Positions 21,569 to 57,461 of a stretch of 64,000 nucleotides of DNA are shown one piece after another. Position 1 is the first letter of the stretch, and every line of letters begins with the position of its first letter. The stretch covers positions 1,024,001 to 1,088,000 of the forward strand of contig OZ245365.1 of the NCBI GenBank assembly GCA_965226495.1, in the 5' to 3' direction. The position numbers were made by a program, and so were the translations under genes. Origin of the DNA: Candidatus Marinacidobacterales bacterium. Lineage in GTDB: Bacteria > Acidobacteriota > Vicinamibacteria > Marinacidobacterales > DATDRI01. Under the pieces are notes generated by a model. It saw only the letters and a list, made by a program, of their open reading frames with translations, was not told where the DNA came from and did not search any database.

Positions 21569-22932
21569 TTATCTACGCCTGCCTTGAGCTTGCTCTCGGC
21601 GGCAATGAGGAAGTTTCCTGAGGTCACCACAATGTCTCCCTCCCGCAGGCCGTCGAGCACCACGAATCCTTCCGAACCCTTTCGACCGAGCGTGATTTTT
21701 TGCGGTTGCAGGCGTCCTTCGCCACGGTCGATAAAGACCAGATTCGTCTTACCGGACATGAGCACGGCCCCCTCGGGCACTATGAGATGTTCCCCCTGCG
21801 GGATCTGTAGCTCCGCATTGACGTACATGTCGGGCTTTAACTTGCCGGAGGGGTTAGGAACTTCTATACGAATCCTCGCGGTGCGGCTCGCCGCTTCGAG
21901 GTACGGGTAGACGTAAGAGACTCTGCCCGAGAACGTTTCCCCGGGGAGATAGGACAGGCTTATGTGCGCCGCTTGACCAACTCGGACCAGGGGAATGTCG
22001 GCCTCGTAGATGTCGGCCGCGACCCAAACGGTCGAGAGATCAGCAATCCGATAGAGCAGCATTCCCGGCTCGACCGCGCTCCCATCGACCACATGCTTCT
22101 CAATAACCGTTCCGGTTACCGGCGAAAGAATAGGGACATATTCAGCTGCTTCCGCCCTTTCCGCGAGCTCGGCGATCTGGCTGTCGCTGAAGTTCCACAG
22201 CTGTAGGCGGCGCCGGGCAGCCTCAAGCAATGAACCACCCCTCCCTTGACCTTCTCGCCTGGTCTCCTCCAGAAACTCTTCTTGCGCCGACAGCAGCTCG
22301 GGACTGTAAATGGTAAAGAGGGGATGATCCTTTTGGACCGTGATACCCGTGTAATCGGCCAGGACTTTACCTACCCAGCCGCGAAACCTTAGCGTGATAT
22401 CGGTAAGTCGGTTCTCGGCGTAGGTGACCGATCCGACAGCGCGAACTTCCAGGACGAGATTTTTCCGTACCACCGGAGCGGTCTTCACGCCGATCAGTTG
22501 CCGCCGTCCGACGTCGACCACCACCGTCCCGGTTTCCACCTCCGCCCGCGTAACCGGGACAAGATCCATGGAACAGATCGGGCAAGTACCGGCGTCGGCC
22601 GAGCGAACGGACGGGTGCATGGAACAGCTGTAGTGCTCGATGCCGTCGACATCTCCAGCCTCTGCGCTGTCGACCTTCTCCTGAGCAACCGGGACAAGAT
22701 CCATGGAGCAAATCGGACAAGTGCCGGGGTCGTGCAAGCGAACCGACGGGTGCATCGAGCACGTGTACTCAATACCGTCGACATCTCCATTGTTCGCGCG
22801 GTCTGCCTCATGGGATCCCCCTCCAACCGCTGCCAACCAACCGGTCAGCTCGTTTCGGCAGAGCCAGCCGGCTCCGAGAACGAGCAGAGCAGCAACGCCG
22901 ACAGTAACCGTACGAACCCGTAACGCCTTCAT
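21562..22932 (-). CDS. cusB: CusB-type periplasmic adaptor with two heavy-metal-binding domains
   Basis: Two YxCSMHPSV...GTCPICSMDLVPV repeats; IYSPELLSAQEE, LKPDMYV, SGNFLIAAES. Confidence 0.92.
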   Translation of the reverse strand: MKALRVRTVTVGVAALLVLGAGWLCRNELTGWLAAVGGGSHEADRANNGDVDGIEYTCSMHPSVRLHDPGTCPICSMDLVPVAQEKVDSAEAGDVDGIEHYSCSMHPSVRSADAGTCPICSMDLVPVTRAEVETGTVVVDVGRRQLIGVKTAPVVRKNLVLEVRAVGSVTYAENRLTDITLRFRGWVGKVLADYTGITVQKDHPLFTIYSPELLSAQEEFLEETRREGQGRGGSLLEAARRRLQLWNFSDSQIAELAERAEAAEYVPILSPVTGTVIEKHVVDGSAVEPGMLLYRIADLSTVWVAADIYEADIPLVRVGQAAHISLSYLPGETFSGRVSYVYPYLEAASRTARIRIEVPNPSGKLKPDMYVNAELQIPQGEHLIVPEGAVLMSGKTNLVFIDRGEGRLQPQKITLGRKGSEGFVVLDGLREGDIVVTSGNFLIAAESKLKAGVDKW

Positions 22933-24321
22933 GGCAACTCCTCCACCGCTTCGAGGGGGAGCCCAACGGCTCCCTTGAGGTTGGCCAAGCCCTTATGGTA
23001 CTCCGCGAGGGCCTGATGGTAACTGAGCTCTGCGAGCATGAGTGTTTTCTCTGCCGTGATCAGAGCTAAGAAATCAATCGTGCTTGCTTCGTAGCCGGAG
23101 TGCGCCGCAGCGAGATTATCTTCAGCCGCCGGCACGATCGACGAAGAGTAGAGTCGTACCACATGCTCACTCTCCCGAACCTCGTCAAAGGCGCTGCTTA
23201 CTTCAAATAGAATCTGGGCCCGCTGGACTTCGAGGCGCGATTTTGTCTGCTCCTTAGCTCCCAGGCCCGAGCCTCACTAAGAGTCAGCCACGTCGATCGA
23301 GGGGGACGTTAACGCCAACTCCGACAAACGGCCGCAGTTTCTCCTCGTGCCAGAGTGCTGTTATAGCCTCCTGAGATGGTCAGGTTGGGGTAATACTCAC
23401 CGACGGGCCAGCTCGATGGAGGCGGCGCGCGCCATGGACTCTTGCCGTCAAGGCATGAAGTTCGGGCCGAGATCCTTAACGCTGCGTTAGTACAAAGACT
23501 CACGGGACGGATTCTCAAGGGAACTACCTCGAAGCAAGCTCGTTGAAAAAGGGGTGGCGGAAGGAAGGTCTGTGGAGAGACGTTCGAGCAAGGTATTGCA
23601 ATCGCGCCGTCGGTGACGGCACGCTTCCGCTCCAAGACAATCCCGTGGTGGATCCAAGGTTCTGTTGCGTCGACTTCTGCTTGCAGGGCATCCTGCTTCG
23701 GGACGAGCCCCGCCCCGTAGCGAGAATTGCGTAATGCGCTTGAACTCTTGGAGCAACTCCTGGTTGGCGCGGTAGCGAAATGATTTCTATGGCACGGTGG
23801 AAAAAGTAGTAATCGTAGAACGCTTGTTCAGTTGTCTGGATTAGCTGTAGGCGCCCCGCCTCGGTATCCTCGCTGACGGCTCGTGCTTCGCTCTTGGCCG
23901 CCTCGCCTTTTAGGCGGAGCTTACCCGGCCAGGGGAAAGTCTGAGACAACTCAAACCTTTGACCGAGGTCCAGACGGTCCACTCCTATGGTGGCGGGAGC
24001 AAGGCCATAAGAGAACACGGGATCATCGAGGGCGGACACTTGGGGGTAGCGGGAGCTCGCCGCGCGACAGGCACTTTCCATCGCTGCTAAGGTTGGATTT
24101 CGTCGCAGTACTTCTCGACGAAGTGCGTCAATTTCTAACTCTGATTGCCCTTGGAAGGGAGTCGTCTGTTTTGCTGGAGCGCCCGAAGTGTTTGCGGGAA
24201 AAGACAGGGAGGGCGCTGACTGACTGTGGTAGTAGTGGGACGCTCCGAGGCCACCCGCACTGACCCCGTTCACGAAAAGAAAAGACAACAATAGTGCCAG
24301 TCGGTTCAAGGGGCTCCACAT
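22929..24321 (-). pseudogene. TolC/CusC-type outer-membrane efflux factor, multiply frameshifted
   Basis: Intact N-part (RNPTLAA, LDDPVFSYG, SQTFPWPGKLRLKG) and C-part (LYSSSIVPAAEDNLAAAHSGYEA); several frame changes in 23160-23800. Confidence 0.8.
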
Positions 24322-24746
24322 CCGATTTCTCCCTTTTCTCTCTGTTCGAAAAAACGGTCTAACAAGATCGCCCGTGCTCATGACTAGAAAGGACGCCGAA
24401 GAAGGCTCTCCAGCTGAGGCAGGAAGCGCGAGGGCGAGAAAAGTCGTGATCGCGTGCTGTTCGATGGTCGGACGGTGGGCAAACAAGAGGGATGAGAAAC
24501 ATCACGTTGCTTCTCCGAAGTCGGGGCATACCGTAGCAGTAGCGGCATGTGCCCCCGCTGGCGTAAAGGGGCTCTTACCCTTGAGAATGGGTTGGTGCAA
24601 CTATCTCAGGCCAGCGAGAGTGTCACTTTACCATGAATCCGGAGGCCGACCGCTGACCAACGGTGGGTAGGGACTTGGCGAAGGGCGATCCGGAGTCGGC
24701 TCTCGCTGGCGTCGCGCAGTACGCGCTATGCACCGGGACCGGGTTA

Positions 24747-30328: not shown

Positions 30329-31067
30329 ATGTTTCGTAGATGGAAATGGCTCGCGGCAGCACCATTGCTTTTCTACGCGTGTCAGCTGCCGGCTCGACGC
30401 CAACGATCAGATCTATCTCGACTACACCGGCGGGGGACTCTACGCGGAGTTTCAGCTTCGGCGCCCCTGGTTCGCAGGGGGAACCATTACCGTGGCGTCG
30501 GTCCAGGCGGACCGGTACAACCTGGCGGAGGGGGAAGCCGCTTTCGAAGACGGGACGGTGAACTACCTCTCCCTTCCCGCCGTAGACATCGGGCTCCAAC
30601 ACCTGTCTTCCATCGGACTCGATACCATCCACCAACGGGTGCGTTGTCTGACGGCTTGGCTCATCGATAGCCTCGTGGCCCTGCGGCACGGAAACGGCGC
30701 CTCACCGATTCGCCTCTACGGCGCGCCGTCGACCGAATGGAGGGGTGGTACGGTCACCATGAACTTCTACCATGCCGACGGGCAGGTCATCGACCATCTC
30801 GTCATCGAGGCCGAAGCGGCCAAGGAAGGGATCTCGCTCCGCACTGGCTGCTTCTGCAATCCGGGGGCGGGGGAGACGGCGCTCGAGCTTTCGAAGCCGG
30901 AGCTGACCGCCTGCTTCGCGGAACACACCAACCTCACGCTCAACGACTTTCGCTTGTGTATCGATGGCAAGAGCACCGGAGCGGTGAGAGTGTCGACCGG
31001 GCTGGTGACGAACTTCGCCGACGTCTATCGCTTCCCTCAATTCGCCGCGAAATTCATCGAAGCGTAA
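30329..31067 (+). pseudogene. Class V aminotransferase (Moco-sulfurase-like) with a large internal deletion, preceded by an unrelated lipoprotein signal
   Basis: ARLDANDQIYLDYTGGGLYAEFQL joined directly to RRPWFAGGTI..FEDGTVNYL..ISLRTGCFCNPG..GAVRVS; PLP-lysine region absent. Confidence 0.8.
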
Positions 31068-32203: not shown

Positions 32204-32485
32204 GTGATTGCCAAACGTTGGGCATTCGGGCGTTCCTCGTCATTCTCGTCCTCCCGCCCGAACGGGCAGACGCGCAGAAATCAAAACAGCTCTACGAGAT
32301 CATGCGACTCATCCGCCATTAAAAAATGGATCTCATTTCTTCCCGGCGCCATGCGGGACAACAACGTCGACATGTGGATTCATATGGTGCAGAGCGGAAA
32401 CCGCGATCCTCTCGCTCTGGACCTGGGCGGGTGGTTCGAGTACAGAGTATGGGAGCGTTATGGCTATCATATTTTTACGGACCGG
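32204..32485 (+). pseudogene. N-terminal remnant of a secreted M24/Xaa-Pro aminopeptidase-like protein
   Basis: YEIMRLIRH*KMDLI / LPGAMRDNNVDMWIH...DPLALDLGG...GYHIFTDR, with a stop and frameshifts. Confidence 0.55.
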
Positions 32486-32486
32486 G

Positions 32487-32895
32487 CGCCTCTATCGAAC
32501 AGTTCGAAAGCCCCGAAAACAGGGTCAGTCTCGGCGCTGATACGGGCAAGTTTGGGCTGCGGGGTACGGAAATAGACTTTGGCCTCAACGAAACAACTGA
32601 AAGGACCCACCAATCCTATGCACAGAACCTGGTCGAGATTCTGAAAGCGGCGGGCTGCAAAGAAGACAGCATCAGCGTCGAAATTGACGGGCCAACCGGT
32701 GCCCACGCCGCATCGGCCTGTCGCATGAGCAGTTCGGACACCGACGGTGTGGTCGACGGGAACTTACGGGTACATGGTACGGATAATCTTTATGTCTGCT
32801 CGAACGCCGTCTATCCTAACGTTACTGCCACGAACCCGACGCTGACCGTGGGCGCTCTTGCGGTGCGGTTGGCGGAGCATATTGGCACCGCATGA
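32487..32895 (+). pseudogene. GMC oxidoreductase C-terminal fragment (copy 1)
   Basis: ASIEQFESPENRVSL, HAASACRM, GVVDGNLRVHGTDNLYVCSNAVYP, NPTLTVGALAVRLAEH. Confidence 0.8.
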
Positions 32896-32933: not shown

Positions 32934-33860
32934 ATGGTGTCCGGCGTGGTCGGTGCGTTATTGGCGAGACGGCTCCTCGAAACGAAGAAGGATGGCAAGA
33001 AGAGAGCCAGAGGGGTCAGCTTCTTGAATCGCAAGACCGGCGTCACGGAATCGATGGAGGGGGACTGCGTCGCGGTTTGCAGCGGCACGGTTGAATCCAC
33101 CAAGCTCCTCCTGGCCTCCGCTAGTACGGATTGGAAGGAGGGCATTGGTAACGATTCAGGGCACCTCGGCAGGCACCTGGTAGGCCATCCGCTTGTTTAT
33201 GTCGAAGGTATCCGGCCTGGCAATCCGGAAAAAATGGCGCGGGAGCTCGGCTTCATCACGTTGGCAAGCCGGCATTTCGATACACCGGAGTACCAGAGGG
33301 AAGGCAAGATGTTGATTGCCGGGGTTGGGGGTGGCACCCTGACCTCTCTAAAAAGCGAGATATTGGGCAACACCTCGAGATCGGATATCGAGGCGAAGAT
33401 GGCGTCAGGTATTCATCTAGCCCTGGAGGCCTCGATCGAACAGTTTGAGAGCCCAGAGAACAGGGTGGGCCTCGGCGCGGACACCGACCGGTTTGGATTA
33501 CGTAGCACGGAGTTGGATTTCGGTATGAACGAAATTACCAAGAAAGCCAACCAAACCCATGCGCAGAACATGGTTGAGATTTTGAAAGCGGCAGGCTGCA
33601 AAGAGGACAGCATCAACGTCGAGTTCATCAAACCCGATGGTGCTCACGCTACCTCAACTTGTCGTATGAGCGGCTCCGACGCGGACGGTGTAGTCGACAG
33701 AGAGCTACGGGTTCACGGCACCGACAACCTGTATGTGTGCTCGAATGCCGTTTATCCCAACGTCACGGGAGTGAACCCGACGTTGACGCTAGGCGCTCTC
33801 GCGGTGCGGTTGGCGGAACACATTGATGCCGCGGCGAGAGGGGTTACGCCGGACCCATGA
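32934..33860 (+). pseudogene. GMC oxidoreductase C-terminal half (copy 2), lacking the FAD-binding N-terminus
   Basis: VCSGTVESTKLLLAS, GIGNDSGHLGRHLVGH, HATSTCRM, NPTLTLGALAVRLAEH; no GxGxxG N-terminus. Confidence 0.8.
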
Positions 33861-40448: not shown

Positions 40449-43168
40449 TATGCTCCCTCCCTTAGCCTTCGGGCCGCCGCCGCTCCTTCGCGCGCGTTCC
40501 TCTGCCGGCGTACAAAAATGTAGACCCCAAGCAGGAATACGGGAATGGGCGGTAAGAGGACGGCGGACGTGCGAATGCCGCTCTGGATGCGGCGAATCTG
40601 GGATTCCATTCGCTCCTCGCTGGCTCGAATCTCGACTTCCTTTTCGGACTCGATATTGGTCTTCAAGACTTCGAATCGGCGGTTCTCTACCTCTTGTAGA
40701 TTGCGCGCCATGATCTGTTTCGTTTGCGCGTCGAGGTCGGCCCGATTCTGTACTTCCGCGATGCGTTCGTCGAGACGTCCCTGGGCCTCGGCGAGCGCCT
40801 GCTCGGCTTTTTGCTCCGCTTCGCCCTCTTCCTGGGTGCGCTGCTCGATGAACGCCTGCGTTTGATCCTCCACGCGCGCGAGTGTCCGGTGTCGGACGCG
40901 CCGGTTCCGAAGGGCGATGAACGACTCGTCGCCGACGAGCGTGTCAATGGCGTTCAGGAATAAAGTCACGTTGTCGAAGTTCAGGTTGGCCGGGCCCACA
41001 CGGCGGATCTCGAAGAACTGCTCGGAGATGAAGTCGAGATCGGTGATGGTGATGACGTGGAGCGGTGTCGCCTTCCCGGAACTTTCCTCACCTTCCGTGT
41101 CATCCTCTTTCTGTTCGGCGTTATTTTCCGTGCTCTTTGCGCCTTCTCGAATTTCCGCGGCGAGCGTATAAACCATCGAATCGGGACGGTGCGGCAGGTT
41201 GCGGTTCAAACTGGCCCCGAGAAAGTTTCGTTGCACTATCTGGGAGAAGTGAAAGCTTCCCGAGAACGTGCCGGATTGCAGGAGTGGGCTATAGGTGAGT
41301 CCCTCTTTGGAAGCCGAGTCGATTTGGCCCGGGTAGAGGAGGACGAGCTGCTGAAGCTCCGACGCCGCAGCGTGGCTCGAGCTGAACACTTCTTCGTTCT
41401 CGTTGCCCCTACCGAGGAAAACCACTTCGGGAGGTAGGTGTGCGAGATCGGGATGGGGATTGTAGCCGTCCCAAGTAATCATCGCGGGGTCCCAGCGGAA
41501 GCCGAGCTCGCTCATGAATGTCCGAATATCGCCCTTGGGTTGCGGCGGCGGCTGACCCTGGCGCATGAGGGGATTCATGGTGGCACCCGGCTGCTCCGAA
41601 GGTGCCAGACCCAGGTTCACGATCGGCAGAGGATCGACGAGGAGAAGTGTCGGTACTCCTTGCTTGATGAAGGCCAGGACGTTGTCCATCTCTCCTTGAG
41701 TAAGAGAGGAGGGGAGTGGGACGAGGAGGCCGTCGACTTCCTCCGCGATCGCGCTGGCGGGGGCGATCTGTACGACTTCGTACTGCTTCTTCAGCTCGTC
41801 GACGACAGACCAAGACGGTGACGGCCGCATCGTGTTGAAGTCGAGACCTCCAAAGAGACGGAGCTGAGTCGTGATGACTCCGACTTTCTTGCGTTCCGTG
41901 TCGGCGACAACCCGGATGCTGCGAGCGATCTCGTACTCCGCTGGCAAACCGCGGTCGAAGAACTGGATGACTTGTTCCTTGCCGCCACAAGTGAACGCGA
42001 GCCCAAGGAAGACTTCCTTGAAGCCCGCCCGCGCGCTCTGGAGGTTAGGGATTTCACGGGGCTGGATGCCGAATTTCTCGCGCGCTTCCCGAGACTCCTC
42101 ACTGAAAGGCTCTGTGTCATGGATGGCGACCTGCACGCGGCCGCCACTGGCAGAGGACATTTCCTTGAGAAGTCCGAGCACGTTGGCGCGGGTCTGGACA
42201 TATTGCTCGGGCACCTCTGGGCTGATGTAGGCCTGGACGAACACTGGCCTGTCTTCGTTGATTTGTCGTAAGAGGCCCTTCGTTTCTCGGCTGAGTGAGT
42301 GGAGCCTCTCCGCCGTCGTATCGGCACGAAGACCAAGACGACCGATGATGGCGATCGCGCTCACGAGGATGACGACGATGGAGACGACGCGAATGATCTG
42401 GTGCGTCGACATACGCATTCCCTCTGCCTCGCGCGGCCAGTGTCTCCGGCTCACCAGGAGCACGTTTAGATACAAGAAGAGGCCTGCGACCGAGAGAAAA
42501 TACAGGAGTCCTGTAAAACTCACGATTCCGCGGCCGAAGTCCTCGAAGTGCAGAAAGACACCCAAAGGCTCGAGGAGTCGCGCAAGACCCGTGCTCAGGA
42601 TTGCCGCCGCCGGCTCAATGAAGACGCCGATCCCGCAAAAGACGGCACCCAAGATGAAGGCGATCGTCACGTTCGACGAGAGTTGGGAAGCGAGCATGCC
42701 AACTGCGATGAGCGCCACACCAATAAGCCAGAAGCCAAAGTAGTTCGCGACCATCAGTCCGAGGTCGGGACTACCGAGAAACAGCAGGACCAGCACGTGG
42801 CTCAGCGAGAGGGCGAGCGACGCCGTGTAGATGGACAAGGTGGCGAAGTACTTTCCGAGAACGATCTCGAGGTCGGTGGCGGGTAGCGTGAATAGGAGCT
42901 CGTCCGTGCCTTGCTTCTTCTCCTCCGCCCAGACGGACATCGTCAGTGCCGGGACGAAGAAAACGAGGAGGTAGGGGAAGATCGCGTAGAGTTGGTCCAG
43001 GTTTGCGAGGTTGTTCAGGAAGAAGCGATCCTGCCAAAAGGCGGCAGCCGCGCTCAAGAAAATGAAGAGCGTGATGAAGACGTAGCCGGTAGGACTGCTG
43101 AAATACATTCGCAGGTCGCGTTTCGCGATGGCGCGCACGATGTTGAAGTTCACGTTCTTCGGCATCAC
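40448..43168 (-). CDS. Fused ABC-2 permease / GldG-like auxiliary component
   Basis: YFSSPTGYVFI, PALTMSVWAEEKKQGTDELL, DTTAERLHSLS, EYEIARSI. Confidence 0.88.
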   Translation of the reverse strand: MMPKNVNFNIVRAIAKRDLRMYFSSPTGYVFITLFIFLSAAAAFWQDRFFLNNLANLDQLYAIFPYLLVFFVPALTMSVWAEEKKQGTDELLFTLPATDLEIVLGKYFATLSIYTASLALSLSHVLVLLFLGSPDLGLMVANYFGFWLIGVALIAVGMLASQLSSNVTIAFILGAVFCGIGVFIEPAAAILSTGLARLLEPLGVFLHFEDFGRGIVSFTGLLYFLSVAGLFLYLNVLLVSRRHWPREAEGMRMSTHQIIRVVSIVVILVSAIAIIGRLGLRADTTAERLHSLSRETKGLLRQINEDRPVFVQAYISPEVPEQYVQTRANVLGLLKEMSSASGGRVQVAIHDTEPFSEESREAREKFGIQPREIPNLQSARAGFKEVFLGLAFTCGGKEQVIQFFDRGLPAEYEIARSIRVVADTERKKVGVITTQLRLFGGLDFNTMRPSPSWSVVDELKKQYEVVQIAPASAIAEEVDGLLVPLPSSLTQGEMDNVLAFIKQGVPTLLLVDPLPIVNLGLAPSEQPGATMNPLMRQGQPPPQPKGDIRTFMSELGFRWDPAMITWDGYNPHPDLAHLPPEVVFLGRGNENEEVFSSSHAAASELQQLVLLYPGQIDSASKEGLTYSPLLQSGTFSGSFHFSQIVQRNFLGASLNRNLPHRPDSMVYTLAAEIREGAKSTENNAEQKEDDTEGEESSGKATPLHVITITDLDFISEQFFEIRRVGPANLNFDNVTLFLNAIDTLVGDESFIALRNRRVRHRTLARVEDQTQAFIEQRTQEEGEAEQKAEQALAEAQGRLDERIAEVQNRADLDAQTKQIMARNLQEVENRRFEVLKTNIESEKEVEIRASEERMESQIRRIQSGIRTSAVLLPPIPVFLLGVYIFVRRQRNAREGAAAARRLREGA

Positions 43169-43941
43169 GACAGCTCTCCCGCGGCAGGCTCGGGACGTTC
43201 CGAAGGGGGCGCCATAGTGGAGGTCAGCCGGTAGAAGGGCTTCTCGAGAGATCCCCCTTCTTCGAGCTCTCGAGGCGTACCTTCGAACACGAGCCGTCCG
43301 TTGTGGACGAAAAGCACGTAGTCCGCGACTGCGTCTACTTCTTGCAGAATGTGGGTCGAGATGAGGATGGTCTTATTGCTGCCGAGATTGCGGATGTTCT
43401 CGCGGAACTGTCGGATCTGATTGGGGTCCAGACCGGCGGTGGGCTCATCCATGATGAGGACCTCCGGATCGTGGAGGAGCGCCTGCGCGAGCCCCACTCT
43501 CTGCTTGAGTCCTCTCGAGAGTTTGCCTATGGGCTTCTCCATCACTTGGTGGAGTGCACAAAAACTGCGAACGAAATCGAGGCGGTCTTTCAACTGCTGC
43601 GGACTCATCTCACGCGCTTCGCCGAAGAACTCGAGGAGCTCCTTCGGTGTCATGTCCGGGTAGAGCGGACCGTTCTCCGGAAGATAGCCGAGCTTCTTGG
43701 ACGCCTCGATGCGCTCCTTGTGTACATCGAGCCCGGCGATGCGCGCGGCCCCGGCGCTCGGGGCGAGATAGCCCGTTAGCATCTTCATCGTCGTGGTCTT
43801 GCCGGCACCATTTGGTCCCAGGAAAGCGACGATCTGCCCTTCCGGAATGGAAAAGCTGATGTTCTCTGTGGCGACGAAGGGCCCGTAGTACTTCGTCAGA
43901 CCCTGCGCCTCGATCATCGGTTTCGAGGAAGCGGTTTCCAT
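43165..43941 (-). CDS. ABC transporter ATP-binding protein (GldA-like)
   Basis: GPNGAGKTT, LSRGLKQR, IMDEPTAGLDP, STHIL. Confidence 0.95.
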   Translation of the reverse strand: METASSKPMIEAQGLTKYYGPFVATENISFSIPEGQIVAFLGPNGAGKTTTMKMLTGYLAPSAGAARIAGLDVHKERIEASKKLGYLPENGPLYPDMTPKELLEFFGEAREMSPQQLKDRLDFVRSFCALHQVMEKPIGKLSRGLKQRVGLAQALLHDPEVLIMDEPTAGLDPNQIRQFRENIRNLGSNKTILISTHILQEVDAVADYVLFVHNGRLVFEGTPRELEEGGSLEKPFYRLTSTMAPPSERPEPAAGELS

Positions 43942-44238
43942 GGAACGTGTACCTCCTTAATTAGTGTGAGTTTGCGGGGCTCTGTCGGCTGAGTTCGTTC
44001 CGAGCGCCCCCCAAGCCCAAATGGTAGGAACGTCCGATTCTACTCAAACGCTCTCATCAATACAAGTCTCGATAGCGTTATAACAGTTATGAACAAAGGG
44101 GTTAACTGGTTGGGGCACCGAGTGGTGCGTGAAAAAGGTAGGAACCCCTTTGAAGAGGCGAGATTGCGCCCCCCGGGAACGCCTCGTCCAGACGAAGCTA
44201 TCGCGAGGGGGGAGAAACCCAAGTGAGGCTAACAAGGG

Positions 44239-44263
44239 GCTTACCAGGTGGGTGGCACCTGGT
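44239..44263 (+). repeat. 25-bp palindromic element, left copy
   Basis: gcttaccaggtgggtggcacctggt; matches the reverse complement of 46683-46707 at 23/25 positions. Confidence 0.8.
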
Positions 44264-44323
44264 GGTCGACTGCAGCTGGTGGTCGACTGCAGCTGGTGGT
44301 CGACTGCACCTGGTGGTCGACTA
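44261..44323. repeat. 17-bp tandem repeat (about 3.7 copies)
   Basis: ggtggtcgactgcagct x2, ggtggtcgactgcacct, ggtggtcgacta; no spacers. Confidence 0.9.
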
Positions 44324-45154
44324 TTCGACGGCCTGGAAGATGCCTTCGCGAACCCAATCCCGGAACCAGCGAAAGAGCTGCTCCTCGCCCACCACCCCTC
44401 GTCCTCGCATTTTCCGAGTTGCAGCCACCGCATCGCCCAGGGCGGTCCCCTCGGCGAGAGCTTGGAGCAGGTCGTGCGCTGACCGGGATAGCTCGAGGCG
44501 CCAACAAGCGTAGTTGCGGCGGAAGACGGCGACCCTCGTGTCCTTCTTCCGGGCGTTCGGATGATCGTGGTCGTCTTCCTTCACCGATGTCAGGTAGGCG
44601 TTAACCGGGTACTGAAAGGACAGCAATTGAAAGGCTTCGATAGGCCGGAGCCGCGCGTCCGCCCAAGCCTCCGTCGGAACCTGAGCGATTTGTTCCGTGG
44701 TGAGAACAGGGGACTCGGGTGCATCGAAAACCTGACTCACGGCGAGCTCTAGTCGCGCCAGATCATGGAGAAACCCTCGTCGCGCGATCCCCGAGGCGGC
44801 ACGGATGTACTCCGGCAAATGATCTCCCAGACGATTGAGGGTATAGCTCCGCGAGGGGAAGGCCTCGACGTACGCGGCGACAAGCTCGTTGAACGCCTCG
44901 TCACCCAAGAAATGGGCGAGGGCGGGGTAGTCCGTCTCCAGGGCTTCCGCGAGGCGAACGAGATACATTCCGCGATAGACGTCCAGGCGCTCGAGCGATG
45001 TCAGCGTCGAGGAGGGCAGGATGATCCTCGTGACCTCGTCGGCGGGAATTCCTTCCGATGCCGCCGCGTCGAGCGCGTCCTCCTCGCTACCCGGGTGGAC
45101 GATGAACGTCTGCATCCACCGCTGGAATTGTTCCAGCTGGATCTCAGTTGCCAT
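44321..45154 (-). CDS. DUF2063 (BufC/HvfC-like) MNIO partner protein
   Basis: ERLDVYRGMYLVRLAEALETDYP, AYVEAFPSRSYTLNRLG, DLARLELA; overlaps the DUF692 stop. Confidence 0.88.
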   Translation of the reverse strand: MATEIQLEQFQRWMQTFIVHPGSEEDALDAAASEGIPADEVTRIILPSSTLTSLERLDVYRGMYLVRLAEALETDYPALAHFLGDEAFNELVAAYVEAFPSRSYTLNRLGDHLPEYIRAASGIARRGFLHDLARLELAVSQVFDAPESPVLTTEQIAQVPTEAWADARLRPIEAFQLLSFQYPVNAYLTSVKEDDHDHPNARKKDTRVAVFRRNYACWRLELSRSAHDLLQALAEGTALGDAVAATRKMRGRGVVGEEQLFRWFRDWVREGIFQAVE

Positions 45155-46007
45155 GGGTGTTCGCCGCCAATGGTTTGATCACGGTCTCACGATAGGCGCT
45201 GGCTTTCAAGACTTCGTCGTGCACGACGCCGAACTCCGGAATGTCGGCGTCCCATTCGAGAAGCGTAGCCACACCGCCTGTTCGCTGACAGCTCTGTCGG
45301 TAGAGCTCCCAGACCTCGTCGATCACATGGTCATTGTGCGTGTCGATGATGTGAGTCCCCTTGTTGGTGTGTCCCGCGAGGTGATATTGGACCACGCGAT
45401 CGGCGGGGATGGCATCGATGTAGACGCGCGAGTCGAATCCGTGGTTGAAAGAGCTGACGTAGACGTTGTTCACGTCGAACAAGATCCCGCAGTCAGCCTC
45501 TTCGAGGAGCCGCACGAGAAAGTCCCACTCCGTCATCGCGGAGGACTCAAACTCCAGGTAAGTCGACGCGTTCTCCAAAATCAGCGGTCGTTCCAAAAAG
45601 TCCGAGACTTCTTTGACCCGCGATACTGTGTGCCGGAGCGCCTCTTCTGTATACGGCATCGGCAGGAGATCGTGGACGTTCTGGCCCGCGACTCCCGTCC
45701 AACACAGGTGATCGGAGATCCAATGCGCCTTGGCGCGCGCCGCCAGCTCCTTCAGCTTGCGCAGGTAATCCCAGTCGAGAGGGTCGCCGCTGCCGATATT
45801 CATGGACACGCCGTGCATGGCGATGGGATAGCGCTCCGCCACCTGGTCGAGGATGTAGAGCGGCCTTCCTCCCGTGTCCATGAAATTCTCGGATAGGATC
45901 TCGAACCAATCCACGTCGGGATGATTGGCGAGGATGTGCCCAAAGTGGACAGTACGCAGGCCAACCCCCAGCCCGAGATCGGGGAAGTTCCAACGATTGG
46001 CAGTCAT
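45144..46007 (-). CDS. bufB: DUF692 multinuclear non-heme iron oxidative enzyme (MNIO; bufferin-maturase type)
   Basis: GVGLR, WFEILSENF, HGVSM, SDHLCW, DLLP, LEN, DVNNVYVS, HLAGH, IDTH, LLEWD; start placed at ATG 46007. Confidence 0.93.
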   Translation of the reverse strand: MTANRWNFPDLGLGVGLRTVHFGHILANHPDVDWFEILSENFMDTGGRPLYILDQVAERYPIAMHGVSMNIGSGDPLDWDYLRKLKELAARAKAHWISDHLCWTGVAGQNVHDLLPMPYTEEALRHTVSRVKEVSDFLERPLILENASTYLEFESSAMTEWDFLVRLLEEADCGILFDVNNVYVSSFNHGFDSRVYIDAIPADRVVQYHLAGHTNKGTHIIDTHNDHVIDEVWELYRQSCQRTGGVATLLEWDADIPEFGVVHDEVLKASAYRETVIKPLAANTHGN

Positions 46008-46046
46008 AGGAAGGACGTTCGTGTAGCCACACCAACAGGGAACGAG

Positions 46047-46074
46047 GGAGGTCACGGGGACGCCCGTGACCTCC
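46047..46074 (-). promoter_or_regulatory. Intercistronic 12-bp hairpin between the precursor and MNIO genes
   Basis: ggaggtcacggg-N4-cccgtgacctcc perfect stem without a U-tract. Confidence 0.7.
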
Positions 46075-46090
46075 TATCAGAACACAGCGA

Positions 46091-46450
46091 CTACTTTTTC
46101 TTCTGGTGCTCGGGCTTCAGAGGAACTTCGCAACCGCCCTGACCCTTGCAGTCGTTCTTGCCTTCTTTGCCACCGCAACCGCCCTGGCCCTTGCACTCGT
46201 TCTTGCCCTTGCAATCGTGCTTGGCGGCGGCAGAGGCGCAGCCGCCCTTGCCTTTACAGTCGTTCTTCCCCGCGCACTCGTTGTTATCGGTTTTGCAGCC
46301 ACCTTGCCCCTTACACTCGTTGTGGCCCTTACAGATATGCTTGGCCTCTTTCTCCTCCTCGGCCTTCTTTTCCTGCCCAAAGGCCTTGGAGCCGACGAGC
46401 ATGCCCGCAACCGTGGCGCCCATCAGCTTGTTAAAATCTCTCCTATCCAT
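46091..46450 (-). CDS. Cys-rich RiPP precursor (BufA2-like repeats) with twin-arginine signal
   Basis: MDRRDFNK..AFG signal; four (C)xGxNxCKGxGGC repeats, 11 Cys; RBS ggaggagg; first gene of the DUF692-DUF2063 run. Confidence 0.88.
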   Translation of the reverse strand: MDRRDFNKLMGATVAGMLVGSKAFGQEKKAEEEKEAKHICKGHNECKGQGGCKTDNNECAGKNDCKGKGGCASAAAKHDCKGKNECKGQGGCGGKEGKNDCKGQGGCEVPLKPEHQKKK

Positions 46451-46578
46451 CAGTCCTCCTCCCCCGGCTCAACGCTCACATCCGGGCCCTCACACCTTGT
46501 AGTACGTCGTGGCCGGCATAACGGATTACATCTCTCGAAGGCGAGAAGCCCGGTCCGCTGTCGCGCCGGTAGGCGACT

Positions 46579-46606
46579 AATATACGGCGCCCCGCGTTAA
46601 AGTCAA
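46579..46606 (-). promoter_or_regulatory. Putative sigma70 promoter for the precursor operon
   Basis: Minus strand TTGACT-N16-TATATT. Confidence 0.5.
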
Positions 46607-46682
46607 TGACTAACTTCTTGGGTCCGTTACAACTGGACAAGGCTATGTTTTACAATGGGTTGTAGCCGTTCGCCACGGATCT

Positions 46683-46707
46683 ACCAGGTGCCACCCATTT
46701 GGTAAGC
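46683..46707 (-). repeat. 25-bp palindromic element, right copy (inverted relative to 44239)
   Basis: accaggtgccacccatttggtaagc is the reverse complement of gcttaccaaatgggtggcacctggt. Confidence 0.8.
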
Positions 46708-46880
46708 ATGCCAATCGTGGTCGGCAACGCACCTGATTACGACCTGCTGCCCCCGCAGGTCGGTGCCGCCTGGAAGACTGATCATCAATAAGAATGGCCG
46801 GCCAGGCGTCCTACAGAAACGAGCAAACGACGAAGGCAGGTCCGCGCCGTGCTAACTCGCCCGATGAGAACGGCACGGAA

Positions 46881-47366
46881 TCACATGCGAATCTCCCGGT
46901 TTTTGATGAGCAGGTTTCCCGCGGCGTCGAAAGCGTTCTTGAGAGTGAAGGCTCGCGGAGACGGTCCAGCCTCCCACAGCCGGTCAAACCGTCCCAAAGC
47001 CTGCTCTACCGTCGGAAGCTGGCCCGCTTCGATCCACCACAGCACCAGCGATGGGCGCTCGGCCGAATGAAACCACTCGCGTCGCTTGCGAAAGAAATCT
47101 CCATGCAGCTCTCGGTACGTGTAGCGCTTGAGGTCTTCAATGGATTGCCACACCGACATGTTGAAGAGAACAAGCGGATCGCCGAGCACCCGCACGTCGG
47201 TGGCGTCCCCCACTTCGGTTTGAAACCTCCAGACGAAGCCCGGGGCCTGCTCCGCGGTGGCATTCACCCGCGCGAGGCCTTCCCGAAATTCGAACATGCT
47301 TGCATCTTGAAGTGGATGAAGCATCCAGGCCAGGTTGGCTTGCGCCAGATGTTTCGCTCGAGCCAT
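46881..47366 (-). CDS. DUF3291 domain protein
   Basis: HLAQAN, VNATAEQAPGFVWR, NMSVWQSIEDL..YTY...H..FFRKRREWF, VLWWI, GPSPRAFT. Confidence 0.88.
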   Translation of the reverse strand: MARAKHLAQANLAWMLHPLQDASMFEFREGLARVNATAEQAPGFVWRFQTEVGDATDVRVLGDPLVLFNMSVWQSIEDLKRYTYRELHGDFFRKRREWFHSAERPSLVLWWIEAGQLPTVEQALGRFDRLWEAGPSPRAFTLKNAFDAAGNLLIKNREIRM

Positions 47367-47403
47367 GCCTCCATTTTGTCAACGGCAAGAACGGAAGTAT
47401 AGG

Positions 47404-48210
47404 ATGGGGCTGAGGATGGGACAGGATTTGCTTCAACTGACGCGATTTCGAATCGACGATCAGACGCATGGGGCGGGGCAAGTGCTTCCATGGCACACCC
47501 ACGATGCGCCGCTGTTGAGCCTCGTTCTGGAAGGTCGGTACGAGGAGGTGTACCCCCACCGTCACTTCAACTGCGGGCCGTTCGACCTGGTGTTGAAGCC
47601 GGGAGGCGAACGCCACTCCGATCAGGTGGGTGACGGGGGTGCACGTTCCCTGTTGGTCGCTCTATCGACCGGTCACGACCTGGAGATGGAGAGATTCGTG
47701 AGCTCTCTCTCCGAGCCGCGGGTTGTCTCCGACCCGCGTGTGCGCCATCTCGTGCGGCGCACTGCCCGCGAGTGGCGGATGAGGGACGAGCTGACGTCCC
47801 TTGCGCTCGAAGCGGGATTGCTCGAGCTCGTCGTGAGTCTCGCACGTGGATCCCGGCCACGAAACCGTTCGCGCGGCAGGCCACCGAGATGGTTGACGCG
47901 AGCCGACGAACTCATCAGCGACACCTACCGAGGAACCGTCGTCCTCGACGAGGTGGCGAAGGAATGCGGCGTCCATCCCGCGCATCTCGCTCGCGCGTTT
48001 CGCAAGTGGCGCGGGTGTTCGATTGGCGAGTACGTTCGCGCGCTGCGAATCGAAACGGCGGTGCGGGCGCTCACCGACACCGATCTGCCGCTTACGGAGA
48101 TTGCGCTCTCTTCGGGGTTCTACGACCAGAGCCACATGGGACGCGCACTGCGGCGAAGCCTCGGGGCGACGCCCCTCGAGATCCGGAGTCGGCGTGGAAG
48201 GTGCGAGTAA
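47404..48210 (+). CDS. AraC family transcriptional regulator
   Basis: Cupin PWHTHD; VAKECGVHPAHLARAFR, LTEIALSSGFYDQSH. Confidence 0.92.
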   Translation: MGLRMGQDLLQLTRFRIDDQTHGAGQVLPWHTHDAPLLSLVLEGRYEEVYPHRHFNCGPFDLVLKPGGERHSDQVGDGGARSLLVALSTGHDLEMERFVSSLSEPRVVSDPRVRHLVRRTAREWRMRDELTSLALEAGLLELVVSLARGSRPRNRSRGRPPRWLTRADELISDTYRGTVVLDEVAKECGVHPAHLARAFRKWRGCSIGEYVRALRIETAVRALTDTDLPLTEIALSSGFYDQSHMGRALRRSLGATPLEIRSRRGRCE

Positions 48211-56009: not shown

Positions 56010-57461
56010 CTATGCAGTCGCGGATGCTCGAGCGATCTCGGCCGCGGCTTCCAATGAGCCGACAGACCAGCAGAGGGAGATGAGCTTCTCCGTCTGTTTG
56101 GAGCTCAAGATTCCCTCGGCTTGACCTCGAAACTTGGCCTCCAAGTCGGCGTCCGTCATGGGGCGTTTCAGACTTCCGATGGCGTGTTCGATATGCTCTG
56201 TCAGCTTGCGTCCGTCGCTGAGCACGATCGTCACGTAAGCTTCGTCCTCGCGTATGCCACTTTCAGTCACGGCAGTGACGCGATCGCGCAAGGCGATGAC
56301 CTCGGGAGCCTGGACGGTGGCGTCGGTGAATTCCTTTTGTCCGGCGGCGCCGCGAAGGATGGCCACGGCGCTCGAGTGGTAGACGCTGAACTTTCCCTCT
56401 AGACCAGTAGAGGGGGACTTCTTGCCAGTAAGCTCCAAAACCAAAGGGTGTACACGGAGCTCCACCCGCTCGATACTCTCGGCCACGAGTTGGTGCTCGC
56501 GACGCAATTGAATGCAGCCGTCGATCACGGGATGTATCACGATGCCGCAGGCGAACGGCTTGTAGGTGTTGCGGGTGATCTCGAAGTTTTCTCCCAAGCC
56601 TTCGGTGATTGCTGAGAAATCACGTTCCTCGGATAGAACATAGGCGAAACCACGAGGCGCTTCGAGAACTCGTTCGGAGCTGGTGAAGTCCTTGGACGCC
56701 AGCAAGGCCGAGGTGAGTCCGTTCTGGGCAGCCCGGCCAGGGTGGAAGGATTTGCACATCGTGCCGAACATCTCCCGAAGTCCCGCCGATTGAGTGCCCG
56801 CAATCCCGAGAGCCCAAGTCATCTGCCGCTCATCGAGCCCGATTAGCTTGCCTGCCGCGGCGGCCGCTCCGAACACACCCGCGGTTCCAGTGATGTGGTA
56901 CCCCCGGTCGTAGTGCCATGGATAAACGGATCGACCGATGCGGCACTCTACATCCACGCCGAGGGTGAAGGCGTGAAGGAACTGTTCGCCGCTCACCGGT
57001 CGTTTTTCCGCGAGGGCTAGGATCGCCGAAGCCACCGGTCCAGCCGGGTGAATGATTGTTTCGAGATCGGTGTCGTCGAAGTCCAGGACGTGCGAGCTGA
57101 TCCCATTCACGAGGGAGGCGTGCAAGACGTCGAGGCGCTCCCCCCGGCCGATGACGGTCGCCACCCGGGGCCCGGAGAACTCCGACAAAGCTGCCAAGGC
57201 TCGCTCGACCGTCTCTTGGTGAGAGCCGCCCACGGCGCAGCCGACCCAGTTCAGGACGGATCGGGTCGCCTCCTTTCGCGCCGGTTCGGGAACGTCGGAC
57301 CATTTCGAGGCCACCACATATCGGGCGAGCTGGCGGGTCACGTCGCCATCTGGTGTGGGACGGCTTGATTTCGCCATGCCCATCGGAGCGGCCTGGGAAA
57401 CACCGAGTACAGCGGATGTCTTAAGGAACGTTCGTCTCGAGATATTTCTCTCTTGGTTCAT
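56010..57461 (-). CDS. MmgE/PrpD family protein with Tat signal
   Basis: SRRTFLK; NGISSHVLDFDDT, HPAGP, GTMCKSFHPG, KPFACG..IHP, KFS. Confidence 0.92.
   Translation of the reverse strand: MNQERNISRRTFLKTSAVLGVSQAAPMGMAKSSRPTPDGDVTRQLARYVVASKWSDVPEPARKEATRSVLNWVGCAVGGSHQETVERALAALSEFSGPRVATVIGRGERLDVLHASLVNGISSHVLDFDDTDLETIIHPAGPVASAILALAEKRPVSGEQFLHAFTLGVDVECRIGRSVYPWHYDRGYHITGTAGVFGAAAAAGKLIGLDERQMTWALGIAGTQSAGLREMFGTMCKSFHPGRAAQNGLTSALLASKDFTSSERVLEAPRGFAYVLSEERDFSAITEGLGENFEITRNTYKPFACGIVIHPVIDGCIQLRREHQLVAESIERVELRVHPLVLELTGKKSPSTGLEGKFSVYHSSAVAILRGAAGQKEFTDATVQAPEVIALRDRVTAVTESGIREDEAYVTIVLSDGRKLTEHIEHAIGSLKRPMTDADLEAKFRGQAEGILSSKQTEKLISLCWSVGSLEAAAEIARASATA

Follow-up and report, generated by a model that had tools for sequence, protein, structure and literature searches.

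The window, a 64,000-nt stretch of contig OZ245365.1 from a Candidatus Marinacidobacterales bacterium, encodes what by sequence is a bufA2-bufB2-bufC2-type operon of the Buf2 (bufferin 2 or 'Cys-Lys' captophorin) kind, and the product of this operon is most likely an exported, Cys-modified and metal-binding peptide. The conserved twin-arginine signal of the precursor is the one unusual trait of the locus, as only Sec signals are described in the literature; in all other respects, the locus is typical of a known class. The best explanation taken as a whole, at a probability of about 0.65, is that of a Buf2-type operon in which the precursor is modified and then exported by Tat, the signal is put to dual use, and a hairpin sets the stoichiometry of precursor and enzyme.

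Operon, enzymes and precursor

The genes of the operon and the parts of the precursor are as follows.

46091..46450, minus strand: bufA-like precursor gene (ORF), 119 aa, 11 Cys, two C-x5-C-type units
46376..46450, minus strand: signal peptide, residues 1-25, assigned from the D-R-R-D-F-N-K n-region and motif conservation, with likely cleavage after A-F-G
46094..46375, minus strand: core peptide, residues 26-119, consisting of a charged linker, unit 1, an Ala-rich spacer, unit 2 and a V-P-x-K tail
45144..46055, minus strand: bufB, MNIO (DUF692) maturase, from NF050167 and PF05114 matches
44321..45154, minus strand: bufC, DUF2063 partner with an RRE-like C-terminal half, from a PF09836 match

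The preliminary description had recognized three co-oriented genes (precursor, DUF692 and DUF2063) and placed them as an MNIO/DUF2063 RiPP cluster of the bufferin/oxazolin class. Both points are borne out, the first by the ORFs, which all lie on the minus strand, and the second by profile matches, in which BufB passes NF050167 (359.1 bits, cut-off 310) and BufC passes PF09836 (DUF2063; 76.1 bits, cut-off 27.2). BufB also matches PF05114 with 358 bits, and its family profile matches solved MNIOs, including 3bww (228 bits), TglH (8hci) and MbnB. The residue after the invariant Asp of BufB is Phe in 0 of 68 sequences and Asp or Glu in 31 of 68, although the mapping of this position onto the published Phe-to-Asp site (PMC13097082) is uncertain. 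The AlphaFold model of BufC (pLDDT 93.7) matches TglI (8hi7_A, E 1.9e-7) and NGO1945 (3dee, E 1.4e-5) and, more weakly, the leader-binding TbiB1 (5v1u_A, probability 0.82, E 0.95) and MbnC, while a sequence search of the BufC family profile against solved structures returned no match. From PF09836 and the model matches, BufC qualifies as a PME-type 1 partner, that is, a DUF2063 protein with an RRE-like domain. Prediction of a complex of BufB, BufC and the precursor yields neither support nor evidence against.

The family matches go well beyond what chance would give, and the precursor has 2071 homologues at E <= 0.001. The A-B-C gene order is retained in 68 of 80 related loci across three phyla, and at least four of the 12 loci that depart from it are interrupted by contig ends. 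DoxX comes after bufC in just 1 of 55 loci. The lack of DoxX and of an ECF sigma/anti-sigma pair, which had been presented as a distinguishing feature, is actually the usual Buf2 layout and already in print. Apart from the bufB and bufC clusters, no cluster of neighboring ORFs is common to more than 7 of the 80 loci, a comparison based on crude longest-ORF calls that took antisense shadows of bufB and bufC. No copper gene adjoins the operon, the closest metal system being a Cus-like RND pump 20 kb away. Two metatranscriptome runs contain 0.23 and 0.18 of the sampled words, shares that carry no weight as expression evidence.

That the precursor is an unmodified, metallothionein-like Cys-rich protein of the periplasm, which lies beside the enzyme genes incidentally, is barely credible. 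While its 11 Cys form a regular lattice that could bind metal via thiolates, and a survey of bufferins reports precursor genes apart from any MNIO gene (PMC12452194), the conservation of A-B-C order in three phyla, the 11-nt overlap of bufB and bufC (from the ORF coordinates) and a BufB score beyond the curated bufferin-maturase cut-off all speak for a precursor that belongs to its enzymes.

The Cys residues of the precursor are at positions 40, 46, 52, 59, 65, 71, 80, 86, 92, 101 and 107, with a spacing of x5, x5, x6, x5, x5 / x8 / x5, x5, x8, x5. The family consensus is of 12 Cys in two 6-Cys units; the window precursor has six in unit 1 and five in unit 2, the missing unit-2 Cys being a loss common to its nearest relatives (P0001-P0003, L006, L007 and L018). 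The 119 residues, 11 Cys and four repeats of the preliminary description are confirmed by the translation; however, the repeats do not amount to a novel architecture, as they represent a duplicated 6-Cys unit and the 12-Cys form has been published. In alignment A1, all 11 Cys, H38/H78 and N44/N84/N99 are invariant or at least 90% conserved. Lys directly follows 7 of the 11 Cys, and the alignment consensus is C-K-G.

Comparison of the precursor with the BufA2 model, a check suggested at the outset, gives a clear match to NF050166 (E 1e-14), yet the score of 54.5 bits is below the cut-off of 60. The match covers residues 12-71 of the precursor and positions 5-64 of the 79 in the profile, and a second, weaker stretch is detected in unit 2 (22.2 bits). 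The relatives P0011 (65.6 bits), P0059 (67.7 bits) and P0090 (66.7 bits) pass the same cut-off; thus, the window precursor is part of a BufA2-related subfamily that straddles it. The first five Cys are spaced as in the canonical BufA2 paralogue of the same genome, and Cys VI is placed differently. Two other assignments are rejected. The precursor is not of the Buf1 type (DUF2282, PF10048), as Pfam matches at E <= 10 are limited to one chance match of 7.8 bits. The cluster is not of the oxazolin (HvfABC) type, as the precursor is without K-C-G and the enzymes score under the cut-offs of HvfB (263.2 vs 360 bits) and, by far, HvfC (BufC, 45.9 vs 142 bits).

The twin-arginine signal

In the precursor signal, the D-R-R-D-F-N-K n-region is followed by a 13-residue uncharged core and by K22 in the c-region. 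The Tat consensus combines S/T-R-R-x-F-L-K with a core of low hydrophobicity and a basic c-region residue; the residue after F in the window signal is N, which is not hydrophobic, at the Leu position of this consensus. The N-terminus itself (M-D-R-R-D-F-N-K) is well supported, since the ATG at 46450 is preceded by a strong Shine-Dalgarno sequence (46455-46462) that is kept in 4 of 4 aligned relatives.

The reading of this segment as a twin-arginine signal, made in the preliminary description, is strengthened by homologues. RR is present in 116 of the best 120 homologues (of 2071), and among the 112 caught by the RR pattern, F is at +2 in 102, K is at +4 in 86, and K or R is in the c-region in 77, with RRxFxK conserved. 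Within the signal core, G16 and G20 are at least 90% conserved in the alignment. At greater distance, the twin-arginine pattern is detected in 79 of 150 representatives clustered at 50% identity, and a hand reading of 80 species-level loci finds RRxF in 53 and no RR in 27; Tat is thus not obligatory for the family. Signals of the RRxF type span Acidobacteriota, Planctomycetota and Gammaproteobacteria. Among related loci, loss of RR is accompanied by loss of F at +2, and the uncharged core of RR-type signals is shorter (median 16 vs 22 residues) and less hydrophobic (2.10 vs 2.51) than that of non-RR signals, with the p-value of the hydrophobicity contrast being inflated because one clade supplies 9 of the 13 non-RR rows. 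Like signal types group together on the BufB tree (6 changes vs a shuffled mean of 18.7; 0 of 500 shuffles as low), and the family appears from its sequences to switch between Tat and non-Tat signals.

The host genome encodes TatC (PF00902, 229.4 bits, C1:3463529-3464164). Only 14 ORFs of the genome, precursor included, share such an N-terminal RR pattern, and 11 of the 12 others that were scanned match Pfam enzyme or DUF families (FAD oxidoreductases, sulfatase, amidohydrolases, PLP enzyme, MsrB and DUF1501). The Tat-signal models PF10518 and TIGR01409 do not match the window precursor, and none of nine relatives tested is over threshold (the best, P0034, scores 13.9 bits vs a cut-off of 16.7), in a test that is low-powered here because even the textbook RRxFLK proteins of this genome score 20-22.4 vs a Pfam threshold of 22.7.

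Published accounts of bufferins and MNIOs describe precursor signals as Sec (PMC11626156, PMC12452194). Tat is not mentioned for bufferins in this literature, though supplementary SignalP classes could already list Tat calls; the words 'Tat' and 'twin' are absent from the accessible portion of the supplementary files of PMC12452194, and the main text of PMC13097082 uses 'signal peptide', 'Tat' and 'periplasm' 0 times each. Such accounts would favor an alternative in which the same bufferin-type operon relies on Sec export and the RRxF is a positively charged n-region or a BufC contact as opposed to a Tat determinant. The sub-threshold scores on the Tat-signal models, the short signal (25 residues) and the 27 related loci that keep the same enzymes without RR point in the same direction. 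In addition, of 120 relatives of the canonical 6-Cys paralogue, 58 carry RR, with K, S and P as alternatives at these positions; thus, RR alone is not diagnostic in bufferins. By contrast, a Sec n-region tolerates K/R exchange and needs no Phe, which is at odds with the conserved RR, F and K of the closest homologues and with the extension of RRxF conservation over three phyla. Further points against the Sec alternative are that F disappears together with RR while the core becomes longer and more hydrophobic, and that the same pattern marks cofactor- or metal-bearing enzyme families elsewhere in the genome. Sec export is considered unlikely on this evidence, and export of the precursor by Tat is judged likely from the sequence pattern.

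Candidate regulatory elements and proposed maturation

The following elements are located within and around the operon.

46047..46074, minus strand: stem-loop with a perfect stem of 12 bp, between precursor gene and bufB, from folding
46579..46606, minus strand: sigma-70-like promoter candidate, TTGACT, 16 nt, TATATT (10/12 matches)
46683..46707, minus strand: 25-nt motif, upstream copy, one arm of an inverted pair flanking the operon
44239..44263, plus strand: 25-nt motif, downstream copy, inverted, about 60 nt beyond the bufC stop
44255..44322, no strand: 17-bp tandem repeat, 4 copies (TRF score 122, 96% matches), abutting the bufC stop codon

The centroid structure of a 66-nt stretch at the first of these elements is the stem alone (-25.1 kcal/mol); for the entire stretch, z = -3.3, and 0 of 200 shuffles are as stable. 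Hairpins of -25 kcal/mol or lower are at the same place in 48 of 72 related loci; among shuffles the count is 8 of 360, and among controls placed inside bufB it is 1 of 72. The hairpin is probably an attenuator or a transcript-stabilizing element 3' of bufA; it has no T-run, and a terminator scan of 43900-47000 returned 0 sites. The GTG at 46055 sits within the hairpin, which suggests that the true start of bufB may be the ATG at 46007. A scan of 43000-48000 against Rfam (E <= 0.1) returned nothing. The promoter candidate is weakly indicated, as it is near chance level (0.9 sites expected); both hexamers are kept, with a different spacer, in the nearest relative (L006). The 17-bp repeat pattern is found nowhere else in the genome, and its region folds with z = -4.6.

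The core 14-mer of the 25-nt motif has five copies in 6.34 Mb, where about 0.05 are expected by estimate. In addition to the pair that flanks the operon, of which the downstream copy forms a hairpin in the predicted fold, copies are located upstream of msrA (two in tandem) and of a Phd/PIN toxin-antitoxin pair. The motif does not fit, by eye, the Caulobacter sigma-F promoter GTAACC-N16-CGAA given in PMC3511200, and no NrsF gene is above cut-off in the genome.

This distribution would agree with a product that acts mainly in oxidative or chlorine stress, or that binds a non-copper metal, as part of a regulon common with methionine sulfoxide reductase. An ECF sigma of N. gonorrhoeae controls msrAB, and the DUF2063 protein NGO1945 is linked to its regulation (cited in PMC3511200), while MerC-bufferin fusions suggest that further metals are handled (PMC12452194). 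One of the motif copies adjoins a toxin-antitoxin pair, however, the functional data on Buf2 all concern copper, and the msrA homologues of Caulobacter did not respond alongside the buf genes (PMC3511200). A stress-related or other-metal role is thus rated as quite improbable, and copper buffering is considered the most likely role of the exported peptide by analogy with Buf2.

In the preferred reading, BufB and BufC would act in the cytoplasm on the newly made 119-aa precursor and oxidize most of its Cys to 5-thiooxazoles. If Caulobacter Buf2 is a guide, conversion would affect the inner Cys of each unit, giving up to seven heterocycles, while the outer Cys of a unit would pair in a disulfide. 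As the N-terminal 25 residues are a twin-arginine signal, Tat rather than Sec probably takes the finished peptide across the membrane after translation, the motif being seen and the route deduced from it. Cleavage after A-F-G would then free into the periplasm a chelator of 94 residues that is rich in Gly and Lys and offers several metal sites. Export after folding, as put forward in the preliminary description, is unsupported because the precursor modeled alone is without a confident fold (mean pLDDT 47.9; below 50 over residues 38-111), with just the signal helix predicted. The strong hairpin after bufA would probably shift the balance between precursor and enzyme in favor of the precursor.

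The unusually strong conservation of the signal core suggests that it may also serve as the recognition sequence of BufBC. TorD and DmsD are Tat proofreading chaperones and would provide an analogy for BufC. A possible, if doubtful, extension is that the twin-arginine signal is the RiPP leader and that BufC holds it in the manner of such a chaperone until all target Cys are converted, after which the peptide would be exported by Tat, possibly metal-loaded. If this extension is true, these peptides would be the first natural RiPPs exported by Tat, and there would be an answer to a question posed in PMC12452194, namely how bufferin precursors escape being exported too early.

Among MNIO-made peptides, bufferins and captophorins form the largest group, and published accounts leave unexplained what keeps the precursor in the cytoplasm until an iron- and oxygen-dependent enzyme has modified it. 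The conservation of a twin-arginine signal in a large subfamily that crosses phyla suggests that there is a second export route, one that is post-translational by design. If so, Tat would join the export routes of natural modified peptides, and the 'Sec' annotation of these precursors would need correcting.

Comparison with known systems

Csp1 and CueO are periplasmic copper proteins that are exported by Tat. Unlike the window precursor, these are folded proteins in which ordinary side chains bind the metal, not ribosomal peptides modified by enzymes.

The closest described counterpart is the bufferin 2 system of Caulobacter vibrioides (bufA2-bufB2-bufC2, BUF_6/12Cys, NF050166/NF050167; Leprevost et al. 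PNAS 2024, PMC11626156; Microb Genom 2025, PMC12452194), in which 12-Cys forms account for about 10% of Buf2 (PMC12452194). Similarly to Caulobacter Buf2, the window locus is an A-B-C cluster without DoxX or sigma/anti-sigma genes that encodes a BufB-type MNIO and a DUF2063/RRE partner, and its precursor combines the C-x5-C-x5-C-x6-C-x5-C lattice of Buf2 precursors with a signal peptide at the N-terminus. The window system differs from Buf2 in that (i) the signal is twin-arginine in type, whereas Sec is reported in the papers, (ii) the sixth Cys of each unit comes after x5, (iii) the precursor lacks a counterpart to the hydrophobic C-terminal segment of the BufA2 profile, the match stopping at position 64 of 79, and (iv) the core is Gly/Lys-rich without a confident predicted fold, one unit-2 Cys having been lost.

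The product chemistry, which the preliminary description had left blank for this repeat type, is available in print for both Buf2 and the PME1-dependent MNIOs. In Caulobacter Buf2, the four central Cys show a shift of -4 Da, absorption is near 305 nm, and the peptide provides protection from copper (10.1101/2024.03.18.585515); PMC13097082 reports that PME1-dependent MNIOs install 5-thiooxazoles. The 'Cys-Lys' captophorins of the latter study (ACS Chem Biol 2026) resemble the window precursor in the Lys that follows so many of its Cys; motifs of the xNxCK and NxCKG kind are among the common repeat 5-mers listed there for this group, and the dependence of the window BufB on a PME1-type partner is a further likeness to the captophorin enzymes.

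The HvfA-HvfB-HvfC oxazolin system of Haemophilus influenzae and the fontiphorin system likewise combine an MNIO and a DUF2063 partner with an exported precursor that has repeated Cys motifs, and the product has several sites. By contrast, the oxazolin/fontiphorin precursors are of the 'Lys-Cys' group (EGKCG), with K-C-G in place of the C-K-G motif of the window precursor, and DoxX is usual in their clusters.

The genome also encodes a second, canonical 6-Cys bufferin cluster (L001, C1:5964409-5968191), which combines an MNIO and a DUF2063 protein with a precursor that scores 63.7 bits on BufA2. This cluster differs from the window operon in its B-C-A gene order and in its 92-aa precursor, which has 6 Cys, retains the C-terminal folded segment and starts with a more hydrophobic, Sec-like signal without RR. 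The two BufB proteins are 49% identical, that of L001 forming a long branch outside the window BufB family. Newly seen in this analysis are this Sec-like 6-Cys paralogous cluster in the same genome, the apparent switches between Tat and non-Tat signals, the conserved hairpin and the 25-nt motif in common with msrA.

Operon and precursor assignment

The three genes of the operon lie on the minus strand, in the order A-B-C:

46091-46450, minus strand, ORF of the precursor (bufA-like, 119 aa)
45144-46055, minus strand, ORF of the MNIO/DUF692 enzyme (bufB)
44321-45154, minus strand, ORF of the DUF2063 protein (bufC)

These ORFs and a count of 11 Cys in the precursor agree with the preliminary description, which had proposed three co-oriented genes and an 11-Cys precursor. 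The DUF2063 and MNIO genes overlap by 11 nt. The precursor N-terminus, M-D-R-R-D-F-N-K, is reliable because its ATG is preceded by a strong Shine-Dalgarno site that is kept in 4/4 aligned relatives. The MNIO passes the NCBIfam 'MNIO family bufferin maturase' model (359.1 bits against a cut-off of 310) and matches PF05114 with 358 bits; the DUF2063 protein scores 76.1 bits on PF09836. The AlphaFold model of this partner (pLDDT 93.7) resembles TglI (8hi7_A, E 1.9e-7), which partners the MNIO TglH, and the DUF2063 structure NGO1945 (3dee), with a weak match to a leader-peptide-binding RRE protein.

BufA2 (bufferin 2 class) is the only model matched by the precursor (54.5 bits, E 1e-14, below the cut-off of 60, which 3/9 relatives tested pass). 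The match spans residues 12-71, equivalent to profile positions 5-64 of 79, and the second half of the precursor gives an additional weak match. An alignment of 43 family members reveals a ground plan of two 6-Cys units (12 Cys in total), each starting with K-H-x-C and made of C-K-G-type motifs; one Cys of the second unit is lost in the window precursor and its nearest relatives. The Cys spacings of the window precursor are x5, x5, x6, x5, x5 / x8 / x5, x5, x8, x5. The cluster is a Buf2 operon of the 'Cys-Lys' captophorin group, and by homology its chemistry is likely the formation of 5-thiooxazoles.

The host genome encodes a second MNIO cluster:

C1:5964409-5968191, host genome coordinates, locus L001, order bufB-bufC-bufA

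At L001 the precursor is of canonical form, with 6 Cys in 92 aa, a BufA2 score of 63.7 bits and a more hydrophobic, Sec-like signal devoid of RR. Both signal types thus occur in one organism, where the two clusters can usefully be contrasted and lend themselves to paired experiments.

The twin-arginine signal

Conservation supports the twin-arginine motif of the preliminary description: RR is found in the n-region of 116 of the best 120 of 2071 precursor homologues (E <= 0.001), a count that includes 112 caught by pattern and four of the eight that the pattern missed. Among the 112, F is at +2 in 102, K is at +4 in 86, and the c-region carries K or R in 77. An automatic rule detects a twin-arginine pattern in 79 of the 150 top-ranking representatives (50% identity). 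The 80 top species-level loci belong to Acidobacteriota, Planctomycetota and Steroidobacteraceae/Woeseiaceae, and a Ca. Marinacidobacterales MAG is the closest (88%); after hand correction they divide into 53 RRxF, 15 non-RR, 11 non-RR with a lipobox and 1 unclear. The Phe is absent wherever RR is absent. The uncharged core has a median of 22 residues in non-RR vs 16 in RR signals and is more hydrophobic in the former, a hydrophobicity statistic that is inflated because most non-RR rows represent one clade. Seven loci (L027, L059, L068, L072, L076, L083 and L084) pair an RRxF signal with a terminal lipobox-like Cys, which would point to lipoprotein forms of the precursor that are exported by Tat.

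Signal type follows descent on a BufB tree of 67/80 loci, the window and the paralogue (13 loci with no B match spanning > 230 residues were left out), changing 6 times compared to a shuffled mean of 18.7, with 0/500 shuffles as low. Nine members form a well-supported non-RR clade amid RR clades; thus, the family switched signal type while its enzymes were unchanged. The host genome encodes TatC and has only 14 ORFs that start with this twin-arginine pattern; of 12 others scanned, 11 match enzyme or DUF families of Pfam that typify exported proteins bearing cofactors or metals. Elsewhere in the window, an MmgE/PrpD-family protein (56010-57461, minus strand) has a textbook twin-arginine signal, S-R-R-T-F-L-K, with a Pfam TAT_signal score of 20 bits, slightly below cut-off.

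Weighing against Tat export, the window signal is short, its Phe is followed by Asn, and it reaches threshold with none of the curated Tat-signal models, which also narrowly miss the textbook cases of the host genome. Among 120 relatives of the second-cluster precursor (P0121-P0240), many of which match Pfam DUF2282, RR is found in 58, mostly as S-R-R-x-L, and K, S and P take its place at these positions in others; thus, RR alone is no proof of Tat in bufferins. Twin-arginine-like signals may extend more widely among bufferins than the subfamily of the window. Overall, Tat export of the window precursor is favored, with a probability of roughly 0.7.

The signal may also serve maturation. Gly16 and Gly20 of its core are each at least 90% conserved, apparently beyond the needs of export, which would fit the hint in the discussion of PMC12452194 that the signal peptide belongs to what BufBC recognizes.

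Flanking elements and neighboring genes

A perfect 12-bp hairpin separates bufA from bufB, and its centroid fold is the stem alone (-25.1 kcal/mol). Hairpins of -25 kcal/mol or stronger occur at this site in 48/72 related loci, with differing sequences, compared to 8/360 shuffles and 1/72 controls inside bufB. In the usual reading of such operons, the hairpin would raise precursor over enzyme by partial termination or transcript stabilization. Other elements are:

46579-46606, sigma-70-like site, of a kind counted no more often than by chance
46683-46707, minus strand, and 44239-44263, plus strand, 25-nt motif, an inverted pair flanking bufABC
C1:1400407, 1400463 and 1237411, host genome coordinates, other copies of the 25-nt motif
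44255-44322, tandem repeat of a 17-bp unit in 4 copies (96% matches), directly next to the bufC stop codon

The hexamers of the sigma-70-like site are kept in the nearest relative. The core 14-mer of the 25-nt motif has only 5 occurrences in the 6.34-Mb genome; an msrA gene is preceded by two tandem copies of the motif, at distances of 54 and 110 nt, and a Phd/YefM-PIN pair by one. The motif may be a shared regulatory element. The 17-bp repeat is unique to this site in the genome and includes several 6-bp palindromes.

Some 20 kb from bufABC, a Cus-like RND efflux set for heavy metals (18410-24486, minus strand) comprises an AcrB/CusA-type pump (775 bits), an outer-membrane factor and a membrane-fusion protein that carries two heavy-metal-binding (HMBD) domains. 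On the plus strand, a full-length PrnB-like gene (4970-6175; monodechloroaminopyrrolnitrin synthase family, 608 bits) adjoins an FGE-sulfatase-domain gene (3694-4746). Adjoining ORFs at 32326-32895 and 32934-33860 (plus strand) each match the C-terminal GMC-oxidoreductase domain only, and a 191-aa ORF (30492-31067, plus strand) matches only the C-terminal part of class-V aminotransferases; these three may be split or truncated genes.

Comparison with published bufferin and captophorin clusters

Tandem repeats and the lack of DoxX (BufD) and sigma/anti-sigma genes, which the preliminary description had listed with Tat targeting as differences from known clusters, are ordinary for the class. Caulobacter buf2ABC likewise is devoid of bufD (PMC11626156), genes for sigma and NrsF are 'found in Buf1 but not in Buf2 BGCs' (PMC12452194), and 90% of Buf2 precursors carry 6 Cys, the remainder being 12-Cys forms with duplicated domains (PMC12452194). 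The 2026 captophorin paper defines the 'Cys-Lys' group and includes xNxCK-type 5-mers among common repeat motifs (PMC13097082). The three-gene layout is the rule in related DNA: the A-B-C order is found in 68/80 loci, contig ends cut at least 4 of the remaining 12, and DoxX accounts for 1/55 ORFs downstream of bufC. In the host genome, no DoxX gene is near either MNIO cluster, five are above cut-off elsewhere, and no NrsF is above cut-off.

The terms 'Tat' and 'twin-arginine' have 0 occurrences in the main text of PMC12452194, PMC11626156 (and its preprint), PMC13097082 and PMC8692599, and in the examined text of two supplementary files of PMC12452194. Searches pairing DUF692 with twin-arginine returned nothing, and those with MNIO returned unrelated work only. 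Judged by titles and abstract starts, matches listed for bufferin with 'Tat signal' included no study of bufferin or MNIO biosynthesis, and those for RiPP, twin-arginine and precursor peptide were lanthipeptide and bacteriocin studies. Within this literature, the twin-arginine signal of the window cluster is an unpublished trait. Published inventories probably include such proteins already, labelled Sec; survey PMC12452194 lists Buf_6-12Cys matches in Planctomycetota genomes. Compared to the published clusters, the single notable trait of the locus is a probable Tat export route, one that is conserved, phylogenetically structured and testable.
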